Below, one piece after another: positions 14,254 through 50,148 of a stretch of DNA of 57,986 bases (within the stretch, counting starts at the first letter, position 1; the number at the start of each line of letters is the position of its first letter). Below the pieces are notes generated by a model. That model was not told where the DNA came from and ran no database searches. It worked only from the letters and a program-made list of their open reading frames with translations. The position numbers and the translations under genes are program-made. Source of the stretch: an uncultured Thermoanaerobaculia bacterium (GTDB taxonomy: Bacteria > Acidobacteriota > Thermoanaerobaculia > Thermoanaerobaculales > Sulfomarinibacteraceae); NCBI GenBank assembly GCA_964565045.1, contig CAZMED010000002.1, positions 1-57,986 on the forward strand, in the 5' to 3' direction.

Positions 14254-15747
14254 TCAGAATATCTTCTTCCGCTTGTCGGACGAGGGGATCATCATCTCCT
14301 CGCGGTACTTGGCGACGGTGCGCCGCGCGAGCCTGATGCCTTCCTTCTGCAGCATCCGCATGATCTTGGAATCCGACAGAGGCCTCTCCGGATCTTCGGC
14401 CTCGATCAGCTTCCGGATCCGCTCCTTGACCACCATCGACGAGATGTTCTCGCCCCGCGCGGAGTCCACCCCGGAGTGGAAGAAGTACTTCATCGGGAAC
14501 ATCCCACGCGGGGTGTACATGTACTTGTTGCTGACCACCCGGGAGATCGTCGACTCGTGCATGCCGATGTCCTCGGCCACCTGGCGTAGAACCATCGGCC
14601 GCAGGTGCTCGATCCCGTGGTCGAGAAAGTCGCTCTGGAAGCTGACGATGCTCTGCGCCACCTTGTAGATGGTGCGCTGGCGCTGATCGATGCTCTTCAT
14701 CAGCCACAGCGCCGAGCGCATCTTGTCCCGCAGGTAGTCGCTGGCCTGCGGATCCAGGCTACGGCCCTTGAGCAGGTTGTGGTACCGGGAGTTGATGCGC
14801 AGCCGGGGAAGACCGTCGTCGTTGAGCGTGATGACGTGCTCTCCGTCCACTTTCCGCACGTAGACGTCGGGCTCGATGTACTGGTTGTCGTCCCGGGTGT
14901 AGGCGCGCCCGGGCTTCGGCTCCAGGCTCTGGATGACGTCCAGGATCGGCCGCAGCTCCGCGACCTCCGCACACCCGATCGCCGCCGCGAGCGGGTCCCA
15001 GCGCTGGTGCAGGAGATCGTCCCAGCAGTTCGAGATCGCCAGCCAGGCCCGCTCCAGCACCTCGATCTGCTCGGGCTCCGTGCCGTCCCGCAGCAGCTGC
15101 TTCACCTGCGCCGCCAGGCACTCCTGGAGATTCGAAGCCGCGATCCCCGGCGGGTCGAGCGAGCGCACCACCTCGACGGCGGTCATGGCGCAGGCCTCGC
15201 CGCAGCCCGTCCCATCCATGATCTCCTCGGTCGAGGCTCGCAGGAAACCGTCCTCGTCGAGGTTGCCGATGATGAACTCGCACGCCTCCAGGATCTCCGT
15301 CGGACAGTCGAGGAGATGGAGCTGCCACAGCAGGTGGTCGTACAGGCTGCCGCTCGCGGAGACGATGTTCTCGAGCCGGTTGTCCTGCTCGGTCGACGGC
15401 GCCGACATCGACGGGCCCTCGCTGCGGGCGTCGCCGAGGTAATCGGCGAAGAAGGCCTCGACGTCGATGTCGGCGTAGGTCTCCTCCTCCGAAGGAAGTC
15501 CGTCGTCCGCCGGCGCCGCGGTCTCGGCGGTCGCCTCCTCCGCGGCGCCGTCGAGCGGGCCTTCGCCGGCGACCGCGTCGTCGGCCGGCTCGTCGTCCTC
15601 GAGCATCGGGTTCTCGAGGATCTCCTGCGCGAGGGTCTCCTCGAGCTCCAGCCGCGACAGCTGGAGCAGCTTGATCGCCTGCTGCAGCGACGGTGTCATC
15701 ACCAGCCGCTGCGCCAGCTTCAAGCGGAGTTTCTGTTCCAATGCCAT
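14254..15747 (-). CDS. rpoN: RNA polymerase sigma-54 factor
   Basis: Start at MALEQKLRLKLAQRLVMTPSLQQAIKLLQLS (region I). The C-terminal RpoN box ARRTVAKYRE and the HTH (HESTISRVV) are present. Confidence 0.9.
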   Translation of the reverse strand: MALEQKLRLKLAQRLVMTPSLQQAIKLLQLSRLELEETLAQEILENPMLEDDEPADDAVAGEGPLDGAAEEATAETAAPADDGLPSEEETYADIDVEAFFADYLGDARSEGPSMSAPSTEQDNRLENIVSASGSLYDHLLWQLHLLDCPTEILEACEFIIGNLDEDGFLRASTEEIMDGTGCGEACAMTAVEVVRSLDPPGIAASNLQECLAAQVKQLLRDGTEPEQIEVLERAWLAISNCWDDLLHQRWDPLAAAIGCAEVAELRPILDVIQSLEPKPGRAYTRDDNQYIEPDVYVRKVDGEHVITLNDDGLPRLRINSRYHNLLKGRSLDPQASDYLRDKMRSALWLMKSIDQRQRTIYKVAQSIVSFQSDFLDHGIEHLRPMVLRQVAEDIGMHESTISRVVSNKYMYTPRGMFPMKYFFHSGVDSARGENISSMVVKERIRKLIEAEDPERPLSDSKIMRMLQKEGIRLARRTVAKYREEMMIPSSDKRKKIF

Positions 15748-15826
15748 CTCGTTCCAGCACCTCGTCAGCGACGGGCGGCCGTGTCGCGCTTCACGGGACC
15801 CGGCGGCGGCTTCGAGCCTTCGCGGC

Positions 15827-16561
15827 TCAGAGTCTGAAGTCCTCGCCGAGGTAGATTCGACGCACATCCAGGTTTTCAGACAGATCGACGGGCTCGCCCG
15901 TAGCAAAAATCTTGCCGTCTTTGATTATATAGGCCCGATCCGTGATCTTCAACGTCTCGCGGACGTTGTGATCCGTAATTAAAACGCCTATTCCCAATGA
16001 CTTGAGCCTTCGGATGATGCGCTGGAGGTCGAGCACCGCGAGCGGGTCGATGCCGGCGAAGGGCTCGTCGAGGAGGATGAAGGTCGGTTCGGTGGCCAGC
16101 GCGCGCGCGACCTCGAGCCGCCGGCGTTCGCCGCCGGAGAGGGTCTCGGCGCGCTGCCCGTGCAGGTTGGCGAGGCCGAAGTCCTCGAGCAGGTTCCGGA
16201 TCCGGCGGTGCGCCTCCTTGGCGTCGACGCCGAGCGCCTCGAGGATCAGCCAGATGTTGTCCTCGACCGTCAGCCGACGAAACGAGCTCGGTTCCTGGGC
16301 CAGGTAGGAGACGCCCATGCGCGCGCGGCGGTACATCGGCTCGTGGGTGATCTCCCGGTCGCCGAGGATGACCCGCCCCTCGTCGGGGCGCACCAATCCG
16401 ACCATCATGTAGAAGGTGGTGGTCTTCCCTGCACCGTTGGGCCCCAGCAGCCCGACGATTTCTCCCGGCGCGATGTCGAGGGTGATGTCATCGACCACCC
16501 AGCGCCCGCGGTAGGCCTTGCGCAAGCCCTTCGCCGCCAGGTCGAGCGCTTTCGGGCTCAA
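15827..16561 (-). CDS. lptB: LPS export ABC transporter ATP-binding protein LptB
   Basis: Walker [10 protein letters not shown], signature [13 protein letters not shown] and Walker [10 protein letters not shown]. There is no in-frame ATG, so the start is proposed at TTG 16561-16559, overlapping the upstream TGA (TTGA). This gives 244 aa. The rest of the 604-aa tracked ORF is an artefact. Confidence 0.88.
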
Positions 16562-42611: not shown

Positions 42612-43865
42612 CTATCTCGCACCGATCTCGCGCCGCAGACGCTCGGTCAGCTCGATCAGGACCGGGTCGGTCGGATGGCGGTCGAGCGCGCGCGAGACCG
42701 CGATCGCGGCTTCCGCGTAGCGACCCTGCCGAATCTGCAATGCCACGAGCCGCGCCGCCGCAGCGGGGGACTCCGGGTTGACCTCGACCGCCCTCTCGAG
42801 GGCCAGCAGCGCATCCGCCGGCCGCCCGGCCTGCTCGGCGACGCGCGCGATCCGTGTCAACAGACCGACATCCGTCGGCGACATCCCCCACGCCCGACGC
42901 AGGTGCCCGAGGGCGGCCTCGAAATCCCCGCGGCTCTCGGCAAGCGCGGCGAGAGTCATCCAGGGGTGGGGCGATTCGGGCTCGAGCGCGAGCGCCCGGT
43001 CGGCGGCGGCGAGTGCCCCCGAGCGGTCGCCGTCGAGCTCTCGCACCAGCGCAAGCATCGCCCACGCGCGCGATCGCTGGCTCCGCGGGCACGCCCGGTC
43101 GCCGATCACGGCGTCGAGCCGAATCGCCGCATCGGTCCTGTCGCCGTCGTCGATGGCCCACCGCGCCATCTCGAGCTGCACCTCCGGATGCTCTGCGTGA
43201 GCGGCCAGAAGGCCCTCCGCCGTCGCGGTCTCGCCCGCCGAGCGGAGTGCGCGCGCAAGCGCAAGGGCATTGTCGACCCGGCGCCGCGGGTAGTACCGGT
43301 CCCGGAGCTCGAGCGCCCGCAGGCGGACCCGCGCCTCCTCCTCCGCGACCAGCTGCACCGGGGGGCTGCGGAGACCTGGCGCGATCGCTTCAGCGACCGC
43401 CAGAGACTCGAGAGCGGCCGCGACCTCGCCCTGCATCAGCAGCACCGCGGCCGCCAGGCGCTGGAGGCGCGCCGACGTCGGGCTCCTGGCGAGAGCTGCT
43501 TCGAGGTGGATTCCGGCCTCGTTCACCCGCCCGCGGAGGAGCTCGGCGCGCGCGAGGTCCGTGAAACCTGCCGGATGCGCAGGCAGCCAGGCCCGCTGCA
43601 GGCCGCCGAAGCGTTCCAGCAGATCCGCGAGAAGCGGCCGCGGCACCGACTCGAGGGCGGCGGCCGGCAGTCGCCGGGCCCGCACGACCATCGGCGGCCA
43701 AGCCGCGAGCCCCGACCTGCAGAGGCGACCGGCGGCAGCGTTCGGGTTGACGCGGGCCAGCCCCTGCAGCTGCTGCCACCACCACCAACCCGCAACCTCG
43801 GCCGCCATCACCGCAACCGCCGCCGAGGCCAGGAGGATCCGCACTCGGTCGCCCCACCGGGTCAC
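42612..43865 (-). CDS. TPR-repeat protein with N-terminal membrane anchor
   Basis: N-terminal hydrophobic segment (ILLASAAVAVMAAEVAGWWWW), then repeated TPR-like A..AL.L.P motifs through to the C-terminus. Confidence 0.65.
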   Translation of the reverse strand: MTRWGDRVRILLASAAVAVMAAEVAGWWWWQQLQGLARVNPNAAAGRLCRSGLAAWPPMVVRARRLPAAALESVPRPLLADLLERFGGLQRAWLPAHPAGFTDLARAELLRGRVNEAGIHLEAALARSPTSARLQRLAAAVLLMQGEVAAALESLAVAEAIAPGLRSPPVQLVAEEEARVRLRALELRDRYYPRRRVDNALALARALRSAGETATAEGLLAAHAEHPEVQLEMARWAIDDGDRTDAAIRLDAVIGDRACPRSQRSRAWAMLALVRELDGDRSGALAAADRALALEPESPHPWMTLAALAESRGDFEAALGHLRRAWGMSPTDVGLLTRIARVAEQAGRPADALLALERAVEVNPESPAAAARLVALQIRQGRYAEAAIAVSRALDRHPTDPVLIELTERLRREIGAR

Positions 43866-44773
43866 GGGTCGATCACTCCGCCATCCTCGTCGACGAACCG
43901 CAAGGCCGAGCGAAGCTCGCGGCCGTTCAGCCGAATTGCCTCCTCCGCGACCGCGCGGGCGAGCTCGAGCACGTCGGCCGCCCGCGCGGACCTGGAGGTG
44001 CAGACCCGGTTGACGTGCTCCGCCGAAAGCTGGGCGCCGCCCACCGCCATCCCCCGGCGTCCCATGTCGGCGACCAGCTCCTCGGCCCGACTTCCCGGCT
44101 CAACGAGGACGAAGGGCCAGGCCGAGCGGGGCTCTCGGATCGAAGCCGGCCGCGGGATCTCGTCCGTTCCTCCGGGCGCCTCCGGCGCCGGGACACCGGA
44201 AAGCTGCAGCCGCGCCCGCACGACCACGCCCCGGTTGAGGTCGAACCCCGATTCGCGAGGCCGGGCACCGCCGAAGCGGATCCGCTCGACCGGCCGCCCG
44301 GGCCGCGCGACATCCATCCACCTGATGAGGCCGTTGCAGGGGTGGCTTCCTCGCAACGAGGCCTCGACGGCCCCTCCGATCGTCCCCGGAGCGGCGACCG
44401 AGGTGCCCAGCGACGGCAGCCCGGTTCGTGCCGCGGCGCGACACACCTGTGCCAGGTTGGCACCGCCACCGGCCACCGCGCCCTCGAGGTCGAGCTCCCA
44501 GAGACCCACGGTTCCGCTGAGGTTCAGGAGTGGGACCCGCAGGCCCCGGTCGGGAGGGACCAGCCGGCTGCCGGAGCCGAGAACCAGCCAAGGCTGGCCA
44601 TGGGTCGCGAGCACGTCGAGGGCGCGCTGAAGCCCGTCAGCACTGCGACATCGGATCAGGAGGTCGGCCGGACCTCCGACCCCGAGGGCGGTCCACGCGC
44701 GGAGGTCGACCCGCTCGTGAACCTCCGGATCGCCGCCCTGCTGCTGGCTCCGGAGATCGGATTTGAGGGTCAC
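43862..44773 (-). CDS. murB: UDP-N-acetylenolpyruvoylglucosamine reductase
   Basis: FAD-binding PCMH region (LGVGGPADLL..LVLGSGSRLV) and the C-terminal GGAQLSAEHVN.. motif. Confidence 0.85.
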   Translation of the reverse strand: MTLKSDLRSQQQGGDPEVHERVDLRAWTALGVGGPADLLIRCRSADGLQRALDVLATHGQPWLVLGSGSRLVPPDRGLRVPLLNLSGTVGLWELDLEGAVAGGGANLAQVCRAAARTGLPSLGTSVAAPGTIGGAVEASLRGSHPCNGLIRWMDVARPGRPVERIRFGGARPRESGFDLNRGVVVRARLQLSGVPAPEAPGGTDEIPRPASIREPRSAWPFVLVEPGSRAEELVADMGRRGMAVGGAQLSAEHVNRVCTSRSARAADVLELARAVAEEAIRLNGRELRSALRFVDEDGGVIDP

Positions 44774-44813
44774 GCGGCTCTTCCGCCCGATTTCACGCTA
44801 CTCCCTGGAATAC

Positions 44814-44829
44814 TGGCACGCGCCTTGCT
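44814..44829 (+). promoter_or_regulatory. sigma54 (-24/-12) promoter
   Basis: TGGCAC-GCGCC-TTGCT: GG at 44815-16 and GC at 44827-28 with exact 10-nt spacing. This is a full match to the TGGCAC-N5-TTGC core. Confidence 0.6.
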
Positions 44830-44839
44830 TATTGTTCGG

Positions 44840-44919
44840 GTGCCGGGCACACGACGATCCGGTACACGACATCATACCTCCTCCTTCCTCCTGCGGGCTT
44901 TCGAGCCCGCCCTTTTTTT
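44840..44919 (+). ncRNA. candidate sigma54-dependent small RNA (~80 nt)
   Basis: Bounded by the sigma54 promoter and a + strand-only intrinsic terminator, with no + strand CDS. It has a 5' hairpin (44840-46 / 44859-65) and an unpaired CCUCCUCCUUCCUCCU tract (44877-92). Confidence 0.5.
44893..44919 (+). terminator. rho-independent terminator (7-bp GC stem, UUCG tetraloop, U7 tail)
   Basis: GCGGGCT-TTCG-AGCCCGC (44893-44910) followed by CC + TTTTTTT (44913-44919). On the minus strand no U-tract follows the stem. Confidence 0.75.
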
Positions 44920-45001
44920 GGGGGGTCCCGCGCGGGGCGTCGTCGACGGACCCGGGGGCTCTCGCGCGCTCGACGTCGGCGACCGCTTCGATGCCTCCGC
45001 C

Positions 45002-48000
45002 TCACCCGGCGCCCTTGAGCCCGAGATTCCGGATGTGGTAGAGCAGTGCCTGGCGAGAGATACCGAGCTCGCGCGCGGTCGCGCTGCGGTTGCCGCCGTT
45101 GCGCTTCAGCGCGGCGCTCAGGAAGCGGCGGCGGAACTCGCGCTGCGCCGCGTCCCAGGAGCCACCGATTTCGGAGCTCGTGGCGGCGATCGGCAGGTGC
45201 TCGGGGCGGACCGTCTCCCCCTGGGCCCGCACCATCGCCACCTCCACGACCTGCCGCAGCTCGCGGACATTTCCCGGCCAGTGGTAGCGGCGCAGCAGGC
45301 TCTCGGACTCGGGGCTCCAGGCCGGCCGCGGCAGCCCGTGGCGCGCGTGGGCCTCGCGTTCGAAGACCTCTCGAAACAGCGGAATATCGTCGGTGCGGGC
45401 GCGCAGCGGGGGGATCGACACCGCCGGTGCCGCGATTCGGAAGTAGAGGTCGCGCCGGAAATCGCCTTCCCGGATCTGCCGGTCGAGATCGCGGTGGGTC
45501 GCCGACACGATCCGCACGTCCACCTCCCTGCTGAGGTGGGTACCGACCGCTCGCACCTCGCGCGACTCGATGAAACGTAGGAGCTTGACCTGGAGCCCGG
45601 GCTCCAGGTCGCCGATCTCGTCGAGGAACAGGGTGCCTGCGTCGGCTGCGATCGCGAGGCCGCGCCGCGACCGGTCGGCGCCCGTGTAGGCTCCTTTCAC
45701 CGATCCGAAGAGCTCGGCCTCGAGCAGGGCCGCTGGAATCGCCGCGACGTTGACCGCGACGAAGGCGCCCTTTCTTCGCGAGAGCGTGTGCAGCGCCCGC
45801 GCCGCCACCTCCTTGCCGACCCCGGTCTCCCCCACCAGAAGCACCGGCAGGTGGGTCGGCCCGAGCTCGCGCAGCTCGCGCCGCAGCGCGCGCGCCGCAT
45901 CGGACACGCCGAAGAAACCCGTCTCGTCGGCGCCGCAGTCCGCCGTCTCCGGCCGCCTCGGCAGCACGAGATCGAGCACGCCCAGCAGGAGGCGACCCGA
46001 GGGGCCCTCGTCCAGAATGCCCCCGAGCGGCACGGCGACCAGTCGTCCTCGGCGCACCTCACCGCCGGGCGCGCCGTGTCCGTGCCGCCAGACCGGAGTG
46101 CCGTCGAGGGCGTCCCGGATCTCCAACCCGGTGACTCCGAGACTCGCCTCGAGCCTTTCGACGTCCTGCGGATCGAGGGCTTCGAGGCCGCCCGCCTCGA
46201 CGACCCGGGCGAGGACGGCGACGATGCCGCCGGCCCGCTCCCCGAGGCCGCTGAGGGACTCCGCCCAGCCCTCGAGACCCGAGCGGCGAAGCAGCGCTGC
46301 GAGACGCGAACGGAGCTTTGCGGGCACCGGGAATCTCTCCCCCCGCACCCGTTCCCCCAGCGCGAGCGCGAAGCCGTCTCCGAGGCGGTCCGCCCGGAGG
46401 GCTAGCGTCGCCGCCTTCGAATCCCCGGGCCCGGGACCGCCCACGAGCTCCGCCGCGAGCGACACGCCCCACGCATCCGGCTCGGCCGGCTCTACGGGCT
46501 CGCCGGCGACGGAAGCTGCGAGGGCCCTCCAGGCCTCGCCCTCCTGCCCTGCCCGCTGGAGCAGGTGCATCGCGCGCCGCGGCTCGCCGTCGAGCAGGGC
46601 GCGGGCGCCGCGCAGCAGCGCGAGGCCCTCCGCAAAACGCGGGTCTTCGGCGTCGATCTCATGCTCGAAATCCTCCAGGCGTCGACAAAAGAGGGGCTCG
46701 TCGCCGCTCGCCAGCGCCAGCCGCGCGCACTCACCGAGCACGAACGGCTCCCGGGGATCGTCGGCCGCCAGGTCGCCCAGGCGCTCGGCGGCCCGCGGCA
46801 ACCGCAGCTGGTCCACGTCGGCGACTGCGAGGTTGAAGAGCGGCAGCGAGGTTCGATGGCGAAAACCGGCCGCGCGCAACAGGTGAAACGCGCGCAGGTG
46901 GTGGCCTTCCGCCTCCCGGCTCCGCCCTTCGCTCAACGCCACGGCCCCGAGGTCGAGCTCGACCATTCCCCGCAGCCCCGGGCCGACAAGGTCACGCGAG
47001 ACCAGCTCGAGGAGGCGCCGCGCCGTGCGCGGCCTGCCGCAGTCGAGATGCCAGAGCGCCCGGCGGTGCGCGAGCTGGGCGCGGAGGCCGGGATGTCCAG
47101 CCGTGGCGAGGCGTCGCCAGGCGGGGTCTTCGAGGCGTTCGGGCGTGAGCCGGTAGGCGAGCTCGATGTCGAGCCGGTGGGACAGCAGCTCCGCGAGGCG
47201 TCGGCGGCAGCTGTCGATCATCGCAGCCGCCTCGGAAGCAGCCGAGCGCTCCGAGCGGCCGACGTCGTCGAGCACCAGAGCGGCCGTCTCCGCGGCCGCC
47301 CGCGGGTTCTCCACCGCATCGCGGGGGCCCGGCAGGCGGCGCGGCACGGCGGGTTTCGGATCGAGGGCTTCGCACCACAGCTCGACGGCCACCCGCCTCC
47401 TTTCAGGCAGTGGCGACAGGGCGGAGCGCGCGCCGAACAGATCCAGAACAGCGAGACAGGCCTCCGCCAGCAGAAGCTGCACGGATTCGCCGAGAGCGCC
47501 GCCGGCGACCATCGACAACAGCTCCCGAACCGGAACTGCGTCGAGGCGGTCCAACCGCGACCTCGCCCAGACTTCGAGCGCCGCGGTGTCGCCGCTGCCG
47601 AGGGCGGTGTGCAGGAGGTGCAGCGGATCATCGGGCGGATAGAGTCCGGCCACCTTCAGGTGCCGTGGGTCCCTCTCGAGGGGAACCGGCTCGGGCAGCC
47701 GCCAGCGGGGTCCGACCTCGACCACAGCCGATCTCCGGCGCTCGACCTCGAGCCGTGCGGGAACCAAACCGCCCTGCAGCGCGATGAAACCCGGAGGCAG
47801 TCCGTCCGGCGACAGCCCCAGCCAGCTGGTCAGCGCGCCACCGGGATGGCCGCGATCCGCGGTTCTGCGGCCGGAACGGCGCGGCGCCAGGGCGCCGCGG
47901 AGGCTCTCGGTCAGGGCCACCCGGTCGGAATCCTCGAAGGGTGCGAAGCGGTCCTGCCGCCCCTCGAGGAATTTCCGTGCGACATCGGGTGGCAACCCGG

Positions 48001-48865
48001 CGACCGCGAGACGCCCGGTCAGAGACCCGCAGCCCCTCGGCGGCGGCTCCGCTCGCCACCCGCGCGGGAAGAGGCCGATCCCGACGGCGCTGCAACCGCT
48101 GCGGGCGGCCCATCGCGCCATCGAGTTGAGCTCCGCGTTCGACAGCCGGCCGACGATGATCACCGTGCCGGCGCCACGGACCGCCGGAATCGGCGGCGGG
48201 CCCGACGCGCCGTCCTCGGCCGGCCACACCCAGGCCCGCATGCCGCGCCTGCGGACCTCGCACCACAGCGCCGCCGCCAAACGCCGTGCGGCTGCCGGCA
48301 CGGGCACTCTCCACAGAGCGATCAAACCCTCTTCCGGCGGCGGCAGCGGGTTCCATCGCAGCGCCCACAGCGCGCGGGCGGTCTCGTGGTCGAGCGGCCG
48401 GGGCAGCTCCCGGAGCTGGCGGGCAATCAGTGCATCGAAGGACGACAAGCCCGGGCCCGGCCGCTCGACCTCGAGCTCGGACGCGGAAAGGCCGACGGCC
48501 TCGGCGATCCGCCCCAGCACCGTCGACCACGCCGCCTCGGTCGCGGCCTCGCCGCCGCCAAGCCGGTCGACCAGCTGCGACAGCGGCAGAGGATAGCGCG
48601 CGAGGACCGGACGGATGCCGTCGGACGAGCGGAACAGGCGATCGCCCGAGAATGCCGATCGCGGCAGCCAGAGATCGAACTCGGCGAGCAGGGCGGCGGC
48701 GGCGGTCAGCCGGGCCGCGGCGCGGTAGCGCTCGCGCTTCGGCAACGAGGCAGGGCGCACCGCCGCCGCCGGCTCCCCCATCTCCTCGCGAACGGCGCCT
48801 GCGATCTCCGGGTCGGGGAGCGTCGGGTGCTCGACGAGCAGTGCCGCCGGGTGCGGGATCCGCAC
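45002..48865 (-). CDS. sigma54-dependent Fis-family transcriptional activator with ~900-aa non-receiver N-terminal region
   Basis: AAA+ EBP core (LLVGETGVGKEVAARALH, GAYTGA loop, FLDEIGDL, WPGNVRELRQVVE) and a C-terminal Fis-type HTH (RSATARELGISRQALLYHIRNLGL). The N-terminus is helical-repeat-rich. Start proposed at GTG 48865 (or ATG 48781), because the first ~145 codons of the tracked ORF overlap aroA. Confidence 0.85.
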   Translation of the reverse strand: MRIPHPAALLVEHPTLPDPEIAGAVREEMGEPAAAVRPASLPKRERYRAAARLTAAAALLAEFDLWLPRSAFSGDRLFRSSDGIRPVLARYPLPLSQLVDRLGGGEAATEAAWSTVLGRIAEAVGLSASELEVERPGPGLSSFDALIARQLRELPRPLDHETARALWALRWNPLPPPEEGLIALWRVPVPAAARRLAAALWCEVRRRGMRAWVWPAEDGASGPPPIPAVRGAGTVIIVGRLSNAELNSMARWAARSGCSAVGIGLFPRGWRAEPPPRGCGSLTGRLAVAGLPPDVARKFLEGRQDRFAPFEDSDRVALTESLRGALAPRRSGRRTADRGHPGGALTSWLGLSPDGLPPGFIALQGGLVPARLEVERRRSAVVEVGPRWRLPEPVPLERDPRHLKVAGLYPPDDPLHLLHTALGSGDTAALEVWARSRLDRLDAVPVRELLSMVAGGALGESVQLLLAEACLAVLDLFGARSALSPLPERRRVAVELWCEALDPKPAVPRRLPGPRDAVENPRAAAETAALVLDDVGRSERSAASEAAAMIDSCRRRLAELLSHRLDIELAYRLTPERLEDPAWRRLATAGHPGLRAQLAHRRALWHLDCGRPRTARRLLELVSRDLVGPGLRGMVELDLGAVALSEGRSREAEGHHLRAFHLLRAAGFRHRTSLPLFNLAVADVDQLRLPRAAERLGDLAADDPREPFVLGECARLALASGDEPLFCRRLEDFEHEIDAEDPRFAEGLALLRGARALLDGEPRRAMHLLQRAGQEGEAWRALAASVAGEPVEPAEPDAWGVSLAAELVGGPGPGDSKAATLALRADRLGDGFALALGERVRGERFPVPAKLRSRLAALLRRSGLEGWAESLSGLGERAGGIVAVLARVVEAGGLEALDPQDVERLEASLGVTGLEIRDALDGTPVWRHGHGAPGGEVRRGRLVAVPLGGILDEGPSGRLLLGVLDLVLPRRPETADCGADETGFFGVSDAARALRRELRELGPTHLPVLLVGETGVGKEVAARALHTLSRRKGAFVAVNVAAIPAALLEAELFGSVKGAYTGADRSRRGLAIAADAGTLFLDEIGDLEPGLQVKLLRFIESREVRAVGTHLSREVDVRIVSATHRDLDRQIREGDFRRDLYFRIAAPAVSIPPLRARTDDIPLFREVFEREAHARHGLPRPAWSPESESLLRRYHWPGNVRELRQVVEVAMVRAQGETVRPEHLPIAATSSEIGGSWDAAQREFRRRFLSAALKRNGGNRSATARELGISRQALLYHIRNLGLKGAG

Positions 48866-48873
48866 GCCTGCCC

Positions 48874-50148
48874 CTACGACGGCGGGAGCTTCGTGAGCCG
48901 GGCCCACATGTCCCAGAAATCGGGGAAGGACTTGCCGACGCAGCTGCCGTCGTCGAGCGCGAGCGCCCCCCCTCCGAGCGCCGCGACCGCCATCGCCATC
49001 GCGATGCGGTGGTCGCCTTCCGCAACCACCGGGCGAGGCGGACCGTCGAGGCGTTCGAGACCCGAGACCACGGCCAGAGTGGAGTCCGTCACCTCGAGCT
49101 CGGCGCCCAACCGGCCCAGGTTCTCGACCATCGCCCGCAGCCGGTCGCTCTCCTTGTGGGCGAGGTGTTCGAGACCACTCATCATCGAACCCGGCGGAGC
49201 ACACGCGGCGACAGCGGCAAGCGCCGGAAAGAGGTCGGGCGTGTGGCGCAGGTCGGCCACGATCGGACGCTCCAGAGGTCCGCGTGCCACGAGCCTCTCG
49301 CCCTCCCATCCGAGGTCGAGCCCCGCCCCGCCGAGAATCCCGACGATCGCGCGGTCTCCCTGGCGGCTCGCGCGATGGAGCGGACCGACGGCGACGCGGC
49401 CCCCCGCGACGGCGACCGCCGCGAGCGCGAAGGCGGCGGCAGACCAGTCACCCTCGACGGTGACCGCGGCCGGGCACAACGATCCGGGCGGCACCGTCCA
49501 GCGCCGCCGGTCCGCGCTCGCGAGGACCGTGCTGCCGAAGGCGCGGAGCACGTCCTCGGTCAGGTCGAGGTAGGGCGCCGAAGGCAGAGACCCCTCCACC
49601 ACGAGGTCGAGGCCCCTCCGCATCAAGGGCGCGGCGAGCAGCAGCGACGAAACGAACTGTGACGAGGACTCGGGCCGGACGGTGAGGGCGCCCCCCTCGA
49701 GCTCGGCGCCTTCCACGGAAACCGGCAGGCGACCGCCGGTGCTCCTGATGCGGGCTCCGAGGAATGCGAGGGCATCACAGAGAGGCGACATCGGACGCTC
49801 TCGGAGGCGGGCACTTCCGGTGATCGTCGCGCCCCCCGGCGTAACGCTCAGCAGGCCGAGGAGCAATCGTGCACCGGTTCCCGAGTCCGCCAGGTCGAGA
49901 ACCGGAGGCTCGTCGGGGATCGTGCGCTCCCCGACCTCGATCGCCGGACCCCACTCGAGGTGCCAGCCCGCGGTGCGAAGCGCCTCCGCGAGAACCCGGG
50001 TGTCGTCGCAGTCCAGCGGCCGTTCGATGCGGCCGCCGCCGGACGCCGCGGCAGCGATCAGGGCGCGGTTGGTGATGCTCTTCGAGGTCGGCACCTCGAC
50101 GTCCGCGGCGAGGCCCGACAGCGGCCCGGGCAGCACTCGGGGCGTCAC
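48874..50148 (-). CDS. aroA: 3-phosphoshikimate 1-carboxyvinyltransferase (EPSP synthase)
   Basis: VPTSKSITNRALIAAAAS, ..LAHKESDRL.. and ..DHRIAMAMAVAAL.. motifs. GTG start at 50148 forms a GTGA overlap with the upstream stop. Confidence 0.9.
   Translation of the reverse strand: MTPRVLPGPLSGLAADVEVPTSKSITNRALIAAAASGGGRIERPLDCDDTRVLAEALRTAGWHLEWGPAIEVGERTIPDEPPVLDLADSGTGARLLLGLLSVTPGGATITGSARLRERPMSPLCDALAFLGARIRSTGGRLPVSVEGAELEGGALTVRPESSSQFVSSLLLAAPLMRRGLDLVVEGSLPSAPYLDLTEDVLRAFGSTVLASADRRRWTVPPGSLCPAAVTVEGDWSAAAFALAAVAVAGGRVAVGPLHRASRQGDRAIVGILGGAGLDLGWEGERLVARGPLERPIVADLRHTPDLFPALAAVAACAPPGSMMSGLEHLAHKESDRLRAMVENLGRLGAELEVTDSTLAVVSGLERLDGPPRPVVAEGDHRIAMAMAVAALGGGALALDDGSCVGKSFPDFWDMWARLTKLPPS

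Follow-up and report, generated by a model that had tools for sequence, protein, structure and literature searches.

A predicted sigma54-type small RNA with an invariant anti-Shine-Dalgarno tract beside an enhancer-binding protein gene in Acidobacteriota

Genes and features at the locus

The window, by which we mean the whole 57,986-nucleotide stretch of DNA that was analysed, contains a gap between a gene for a MurB-like FAD-binding protein and a gene for a large sigma54 enhancer-binding protein, and it is this gap that holds the predicted small RNA (sRNA) gene described here. The features of the locus are collected in Table 1, where the length of the gap agrees with that of the original prediction. 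The murB-like gene is transcribed away from the sRNA gene, its start lying about 41 nt from the -24 box of the promoter.

Table 1. Coordinates of the genes and predicted elements at the locus, numbered from the first letter of the window.
Feature	Coordinates	Strand	Description
Gap between murB-like and activator genes	44774-45001		228 bp; holds the sRNA gene
Sigma54 promoter (predicted)	44809-44831	+	core TGGCACG-CGCC-TTGCT at 44814-44829
sRNA (predicted)	44840-44919	+	about 78-80 nt; 3' end in the U run
5' hairpin	44840-44865	+	44840-44846 pairs with 44859-44865; loop 44848-44857
Single-stranded tract	44870-44892	+	CAUCAUACCUCCUCCUUCCUCCU; 23 nt, invariant
Intrinsic terminator	44893-44919	+	7-bp GC-rich stem, 4-nt loop, CC, U7
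MurB-like FAD-binding gene	43862-44773	-	divergent; Pfam FAD_binding_4 and MurB_C above cut-offs
Sigma54 enhancer-binding protein gene	45002-48865	-	1287 aa; presumed cognate activator; convergent with the sRNA gene
aroA	48874-50136	-	TIGR01356, 321 bits (cut-off 287); adjoins the activator gene, upstream of it
rpoN (sigma54 factor)	14254-15906	-	Sigma54_AID, Sigma54_CBD and Sigma54_DBD all match

The divergent gene had been called murB, a name that stands in part: the MurB-type Pfam domains pass their cut-offs, but the protein reaches at most 99 bits against the NCBIfam MurB equivalogs (cut-offs 144-277), all models staying below cut-off, and it is best described as divergent MurB-like. Its relatives are named merely "FAD-binding protein" at NCBI, and every MurB-like member that was examined adjoins this activator and the sRNA. 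On the far side of the activator lies a gene of the EPSP-synthase family, which was considered as murA and rejected, as the TIGR01356 match makes it aroA; a "murA-murB" reading of the gene row is therefore wrong. With aroA in place of murA and a MurB-like protein under the equivalog cut-offs, the interpretation of the row as a peptidoglycan operon is weakened. The conserved row consists of an LpxH-like phosphoesterase gene, aroA, the activator gene, the sRNA gene (on the opposite strand), the murB-like gene and a gene for a TPR protein. The gene for sigma54 itself is present in the same window, as had been predicted, with matches to all three sigma54 domains and the RpoN box RRTVAKYR in its product.

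The activator contains the Pfam domains Sigma54_activat, AAA_lid_14 and HTH_8 together with Walker A, Walker B and a GAYTGA loop, and this domain content agrees with the earlier description of an activator that lacks a receiver domain. No Pfam family matched its residues 1-980 (45926-48865, minus strand). An AlphaFold model (pLDDT 75) depicts an alpha/beta region at residues of about 180-265, a TPR-like superhelix at about 400-900 and a small beta domain at 913-947; the best fold matches of the N-terminus were TPR proteins and a STAND-TPR protein (6mfv), all with low TM-scores.

The longer open reading frames that overlap the gap on either strand matched no Pfam family. Immediately upstream of the murB-like gene is a mini-ORF of 8 codons (44770-44796, minus strand; GTG AAA TCG GGC GGA AGA GCC GCG TGA) with its own Shine-Dalgarno-like CAGGGAG, whose TGA overlaps the GTG start of the murB-like gene (GTGA, 44773-44770). 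This arrangement is kept in the clade of the window, and other clades have an upstream start codon in frame with MurB-like, which suggests that translation is coupled or that the start has shifted in a clade-specific way.

All named homologues of the MurB-like protein and the activator belong to Acidobacteriota (Thermoanaerobaculales, Holophagae or "Acidobacteriota bacterium"), and judged by these homologues the lineage of the window is Acidobacteriota, Thermoanaerobaculia-like. A myxobacterial origin was considered and rejected, every named homologue of either protein being from Acidobacteriota. The nearest genome (L001, DATIVB010000056.1), with an activator 89% identical to that of the window, is labelled as a "Chondromyces sp." MAG, a label that, given the Acidobacteriota homologues, is probably wrong.

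Promoter, hairpin and terminator of the predicted RNA

The sigma54 core that had been proposed, TGGCAC-GCGCC-TTGC at 44814-44828, was borne out, and the next base, a T, completes the TTGCW element. The GG of the -24 element (44815-44816) and the GC of the -12 element (44827-44828) stand at canonical spacing, and both the AATAC before the core and the G after TGGCAC fit the extended consensus mrNrY-TGGCACG-N4-TTGCW. Exact matches to TGGCACN5TTGCW number one in the 58-kb window, compared to 0.02 expected from shuffles. A start of the RNA near 44840 is predicted, given that transcription usually begins 12 nt from the -12 GC. Searches upstream of the promoter for an enhancer, using k-mers, dyads and anchored conservation, yielded only stretches that follow the codon pattern of the murB-like gene, with no conserved dyad distinct from this codon conservation and no binding site for the activator.

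At the other end of the unit, the terminator reads GCGGGCT-TTCG-AGCCCGC at 44893-44910, followed by CC and by T7 at 44913-44919. A scan of positions 44000-45600 found this as the sole terminator-like site, on the plus strand, confirming the claim that it is oriented for that strand only. The predicted plus-strand RNA contains no AUG, in agreement with the earlier observation that no coding sequence follows the promoter on this strand. The 5' hairpin that had been described between 44840-44846 and 44859-44865 is present, and it covaries across relatives. Its conserved core pairs join 44842-44847 with 44858-44863, and the two outer pairs are clade-specific. The fold energy of the predicted RNA (z = -1.7) is unremarkable alone, and the case that the unit exceeds chance is made by its conservation in relatives, as judged from sequence comparison, rather than by fold energy.

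Conservation of the unit in related genomes

In order to obtain relatives independently of the RNA, loci were retrieved by protein homology, with activator homologues leading to L001 and L005-L015 and MurB-like homologues to L092-L094. All 14 loci obtained in this way (12 distinct) carry the sRNA unit, at identities down to 38% for the activator N-terminus and 43% for MurB-like. Its elements in these loci are TGGCAY-N5-TTGCT, whose spacer varies, a hairpin, the stretch CATCATACCTCCTCCTTCCTCCTGCGGGC, which is the same in all, a second hairpin with a variable loop, and a T run. A further 76 metagenome loci, found by scanning with a 22-mer alone, also carry the unit, so that about 90 related loci from uncultured Acidobacteriota in all share the sRNA at the same position. 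As the 76 metagenome loci were selected by the 22-mer, they share it by construction, and its invariance is tested by the protein-retrieved loci only.

Wherever flanking sequence exists in the metagenome loci, the MurB-like gene lies divergent upstream and the 3' end of the activator gene convergent downstream, and with both neighbours always in place the sRNA never occurs away from this gene pair among the loci examined. In all loci with sufficient flank, the 22-mer is preceded at a distance of 54-59 nt by the TGGCAY-N5-TTGC motif and followed at 20-23 nt by 5-9 consecutive T. The four elements, namely promoter, hairpin, CU tract and terminator, were thus conserved together in every locus examined that keeps the flanking genes, which is the opposite of the loss that would have spoken against the original prediction. 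Mean nucleotide identity amounts to 88% for the sRNA versus 75% for the adjacent coding DNA.

In six loci (L017, L024, L025, L068, L075 and L083) the activator reading frame between stops is only about 430-460 aa long, only about 87 aa of the activator N-terminal region align, and the sRNA is intact. The long N-terminus of the activator is missing, split off or frameshifted in these six.

A covariance model (R1) and an alignment (A1) were built from 67 distinct sequences. The model has a single match in the window (44814-44920, 111 bits, E = 1e-28) and finds one copy per related locus; extra copies or paralogues were found neither in the window nor in about 450 kb of related DNA. In the alignment, T1, G2, G3, C4 and A5 and T12, T13, G14 and C15 of the promoter are invariant and the N5 spacer varies, and sequence conservation of the RNA starts at about the predicted +1. 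Across the two helices 94% of the cells are paired, compared to 26-48% for controls with slid partners, and RNAalifold recovers the same two helices from the alignment. Every cell of the terminator helix is paired. Four pairs show multiple pair types, and none of 500 shuffles reached the observed covariation score: in the 5' hairpin, alignment columns 34-50 occur as GU, AU and GC and columns 36-48 as GC, UA, GU, AU and CG, and in the terminator, columns 88-99 occur as GC, AU and GU and columns 90-97 as CG, UA and UG.

The loop of the 5' hairpin (44848-44857) has several positions that are at least 90% conserved over the 67 sequences, reading ACACAACGA in most sequences and ACACGACGA in the window. 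This conserved loop could be a second contact site, for example a kissing loop or a protein contact.

Taken together, the conserved promoter motif, covarying helices and terminator make it very likely that the locus is a real sigma54-type sRNA gene, and its product is most likely an independently transcribed, non-coding RNA of the predicted size. In the mechanism that we propose, RNA polymerase with sigma54 would sit at the promoter and the neighbouring activator would open it once its TPR-type sensor region receives a signal. The activator gene adjoins the sRNA gene in every locus with flank, and by analogy with known pairs of this kind control of the sRNA by the adjacent activator is likely.

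An invariant, unpaired anti-Shine-Dalgarno tract

Between the two hairpins lies the tract CAUCAUACCUCCUCCUUCCUCCU, which reads as an anti-start-codon sequence followed by three overlapping CCUCC anti-Shine-Dalgarno motifs and includes ACCUCCU, which we take to be the anti-Shine-Dalgarno motif of 16S rRNA. The 16-nt stretch at 44877-44892, for which an unpaired state had been predicted, is indeed unpaired in the minimum-energy fold, and the mean predicted unpaired probability of the whole tract over the 67 sequences is 0.98. Among the loci fetched through protein homology alone the tract does not vary, and the invariant run there extends from 44870 to 44898 (29 nt). Read in this way, the unpaired CAUCAUA-CCUCCUCCUUCCUCCU could pair with the purine-rich Shine-Dalgarno and start-codon regions of target mRNAs, and such pairing would block ribosome binding there, as in sRNAs with CCUCCUCCC anti-Shine-Dalgarno motifs. 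We place about even confidence in repression in trans at ribosome-binding sites as the main activity of the sRNA.

Candidate targets were sought by a duplex scan of the window and of the translation-start regions of neighbouring genes in 8 loci, which returned nothing beyond generic Shine-Dalgarno pairing. For the activator and TPR genes, pairing at the start region ranks at best near the 5th percentile of the background, a level that any Shine-Dalgarno sequence would reach, and the scan points to no specific target in trans.

The same tract has a second face: its minus-strand sequence, AGGAGGAAGGAGGAGG-U-AUGAUG, can be taken as a strong ribosome-binding site with start codons or alternatively as a -10-like TATGAT. 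The complement of the tract has this TATGAT without a recognisable -35 element, plus five GGA motifs, and a promoter scan called no promoter there (minus strand, 44870-44892). Part of the constraint on the tract could come from the minus strand. In its strongest form, such a reading would make the element a leader or intercistronic translation element of the murB-like gene, composed of a triple Shine-Dalgarno sequence, AUGAUG and a small ORF, with the plus-strand promoter and terminator incidental. Points in its favour are that the minus-strand sequence is invariant and that an ORF of 25 codons follows it in the window (44875 to 44798), but across loci the ORF ranges from 3 to 202 codons in three frames and encodes unrelated peptides. 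On the same grounds of length (3-202 codons), shifting frames and unrelated peptides, a small protein gene from the ATGATG at 44875 (minus strand) was rejected. In addition, pair 31-53 of the 5' hairpin is G-U in 67/67 sequences and pair 34-50 is G-U in 45/67, and since these pairs become C-A mismatches on the minus strand, the folded RNA is the plus-strand one. The conserved TGGCAY-N5-TTGC motif and the T run occur at fixed distances on the plus strand only, and the scans found no promoter or terminator on the minus strand, leaving a purely minus-strand element highly improbable.

A separate matter is what a minus-strand transcript of the operon would mean for a plus-strand sRNA. There is no terminator on the minus strand between the stop of the activator gene and the murB-like gene. 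A distance of 10-16 nt separates the murB-like ribosome-binding site from the complement of the -24 box, and in most loci the murB-like start is set upstream of the 22-mer at a nearly fixed distance of 95-99 nt. These three observations indicate that the operon mRNA probably runs antisense through the sRNA gene, and the sRNA would then probably be perfectly antisense to a read-through RNA of aroA, activator, murB-like and TPR genes. It may therefore act in cis on the operon mRNA, and an effect in cis besides the proposed action in trans is likely.

A role confined to cis is a different proposition, in which the sRNA, or convergent transcription as such, would act only on the opposite-strand operon RNA and have no targets in trans, tuning expression of the murB-like or the activator gene; the means could be transcriptional interference, cleavage triggered by the duplex, or occlusion of the strong ribosome-loading site upstream of the murB-like gene. 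The uninterrupted minus strand and the near-constant spacing fit this proposal, and the closeness of the ribosome-binding site to the promoter complement would leave little room for a separate murB-like promoter. The restriction of the sRNA to this locus is also consistent with it, as is its duplex with the antisense site, which at -54 kcal/mol far exceeds any other in the window. Against it stands a run of 23-29 nt that is invariant in loci where MurB-like has fallen to about 40% identity. Since any mutation changes both partners of a cis pair alike and leaves them complementary, a purely cis role fails to explain why the sequence does not change. The holding of an anti-Shine-Dalgarno tract in an unpaired state is, moreover, a hallmark of seeds that act in trans, and the minus-strand transcript across the gap is itself an inferred one. 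A purely cis-antisense function is accordingly considered unlikely.

The tract might also serve a protein rather than an mRNA, the pyrimidine tract, with or without the hairpin loop, binding or titrating a protein, or the sRNA mimicking the 3' tail of 16S rRNA through its presumed anti-Shine-Dalgarno ACCUCCU motif as a decoy. An invariant run of 23-29 nt exceeds typical seeds and the hairpin loop is conserved too, both of which would fit such a role. The conserved neighbourhood, however, encodes no candidate partner, and the repeated-motif layout of protein sponges is absent, there being one tract and one hairpin. Base pairing is a simpler reading of an unpaired, CCUCC-rich tract, for which NfeR1 provides a precedent (PMC10746234), and a protein-binding or decoy RNA appears quite improbable.

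Finally, the two strands might be considered jointly, with both strands of the 23-nt core functional and the sRNA acting as a translation brake triggered by the activator. In the operon mRNA, the core would serve as a triple Shine-Dalgarno sequence plus AUGAUG at which ribosomes load upstream of the murB-like gene, the sigma54-triggered plus-strand sRNA would mask that ribosome-loading site in cis, and its ACCUCCU copy would compete with ribosomes for Shine-Dalgarno sequences throughout the genome. Constraint on both strands would then explain why the tract never changes, but we regard this combination as improbable. Of all these readings, the best overall explanation is an sRNA driven by sigma54 and the activator that acts through anti-Shine-Dalgarno pairing, and we hold it with moderate confidence.

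Comparison with known small RNAs

A search of the whole window with Rfam 15 yielded no family at the gathering threshold, Qrr, GlmY, GlmZ, CrcZ and cuckoo included. The best sub-threshold hits reached about 13 bits with E above 2, so the earlier statement that the sequence resembles no recognised sRNA stood up to a covariance search. Membership in a known RNA family was rejected, the sub-threshold hits (SorX and malK-III, about 13 bits) being at chance level. SorX of Rhodobacter, the best of them, shares the layout of hairpin, ACCUCC linker and terminator, and scores 12.8 bits here against a gathering threshold of 46.6 (E = 2.2), a chance-level value driven by the terminator and the CCUCC. The locus had no match in the plasmid database, and searches of the literature found no description of this sRNA.

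Layouts in which an sRNA gene lies beside the gene of the activator that switches it on are known from Qrr/LuxO, GlmY/GlrR and CrcZ/CbrB. The Qrr1-5 RNAs of Vibrio are about 100 nt long, sigma54-dependent and driven by their activator, and one copy adjoins luxO. They pair with translation-start regions through a conserved region that is unpaired, and they feed back on the luxO mRNA. The activator LuxO is a receiver-domain protein under the control of a phosphorelay, and Qrr has four stem-loops and exists in several copies, whereas the present RNA has one copy, an activator with a TPR-type N-terminus and no Rfam match. In Enterobacteriaceae, the GlmY gene lies near that of its activator GlrR, and GlmY acts as a protein decoy for RapZ rather than through an anti-Shine-Dalgarno seed. 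GlmY is a sigma54-dependent sRNA tied to the synthesis of cell-envelope precursors (PMC3162934; PMC3045617); it has no homology to the present RNA, and the envelope link is weak here, with aroA in place of murA and a MurB-like protein below the equivalog cut-offs.

Pxr of Myxococcus xanthus and related myxobacteria is similar in that an apparently sigma54-driven sRNA with a terminator stem-loop lies beside an activator gene (PMC5568312). It is 108 nt long with three stem-loops and is located downstream of nla19, which encodes a response regulator, after an intergenic region of 262 nt that contains a predicted sigma54 promoter, and a NADH dehydrogenase gene follows it (PMC5568312). The RNA described here is, in contrast, about 80 nt long with two stem-loops, convergent with a receiver-less activator, and from Acidobacteriota. 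The resemblance to Pxr and Qrr that had been pointed out therefore holds as an analogy of layout but not as kinship, there being no match in sequence or structure and a different anatomy. A Pxr homologue was rejected on these grounds and on the non-myxobacterial lineage.

In its seed, the predicted RNA resembles the Alpha-r14/cuckoo family (NfeR1, CcsR1-4), in which ultraconserved unpaired CCUCCUCC-type anti-Shine-Dalgarno motifs block the ribosome-binding sites of many mRNAs (PMC10746234; PMC4615179), NfeR1 being a precedent for seeds of this kind (PMC10746234). The CCUCCUCCC motif of that family sits in two or three hairpins, the family is alphaproteobacterial, and the NfeR1 promoter has no sigma54 signature (PMC10746234), whereas at this locus a single linear tract of 16 nt separates two hairpins, and the RNA has no Rfam match. 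From its sequence, we conclude that the predicted RNA represents a previously undescribed sRNA family of a known type, namely that of sigma54/activator-linked sRNAs with an anti-Shine-Dalgarno seed.

Implications for Acidobacteriota

Acidobacteriota are a major phylum of soils and sediments; no regulatory RNA characterised in them is known to us, and a search of the literature found none. The family described here would give this phylum a well-defined sRNA family that is supported by comparison and comes with a ready covariance model. It would also extend to another phylum the pattern, seen in Qrr, GlmY, CrcZ and Pxr, of a sigma54 activator beside its own sRNA, with sensing by the activator here possibly achieved through a region of about 1000 aa that is modelled as TPR, possibly STAND-like, instead of through a receiver domain. 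As an anti-Shine-Dalgarno seed, the invariant tract of 23-29 nt would be concrete and testable, and the fixed place of the sRNA in the row of aroA, activator, murB-like and TPR genes would make it a testable case of one RNA that acts in cis and in trans.
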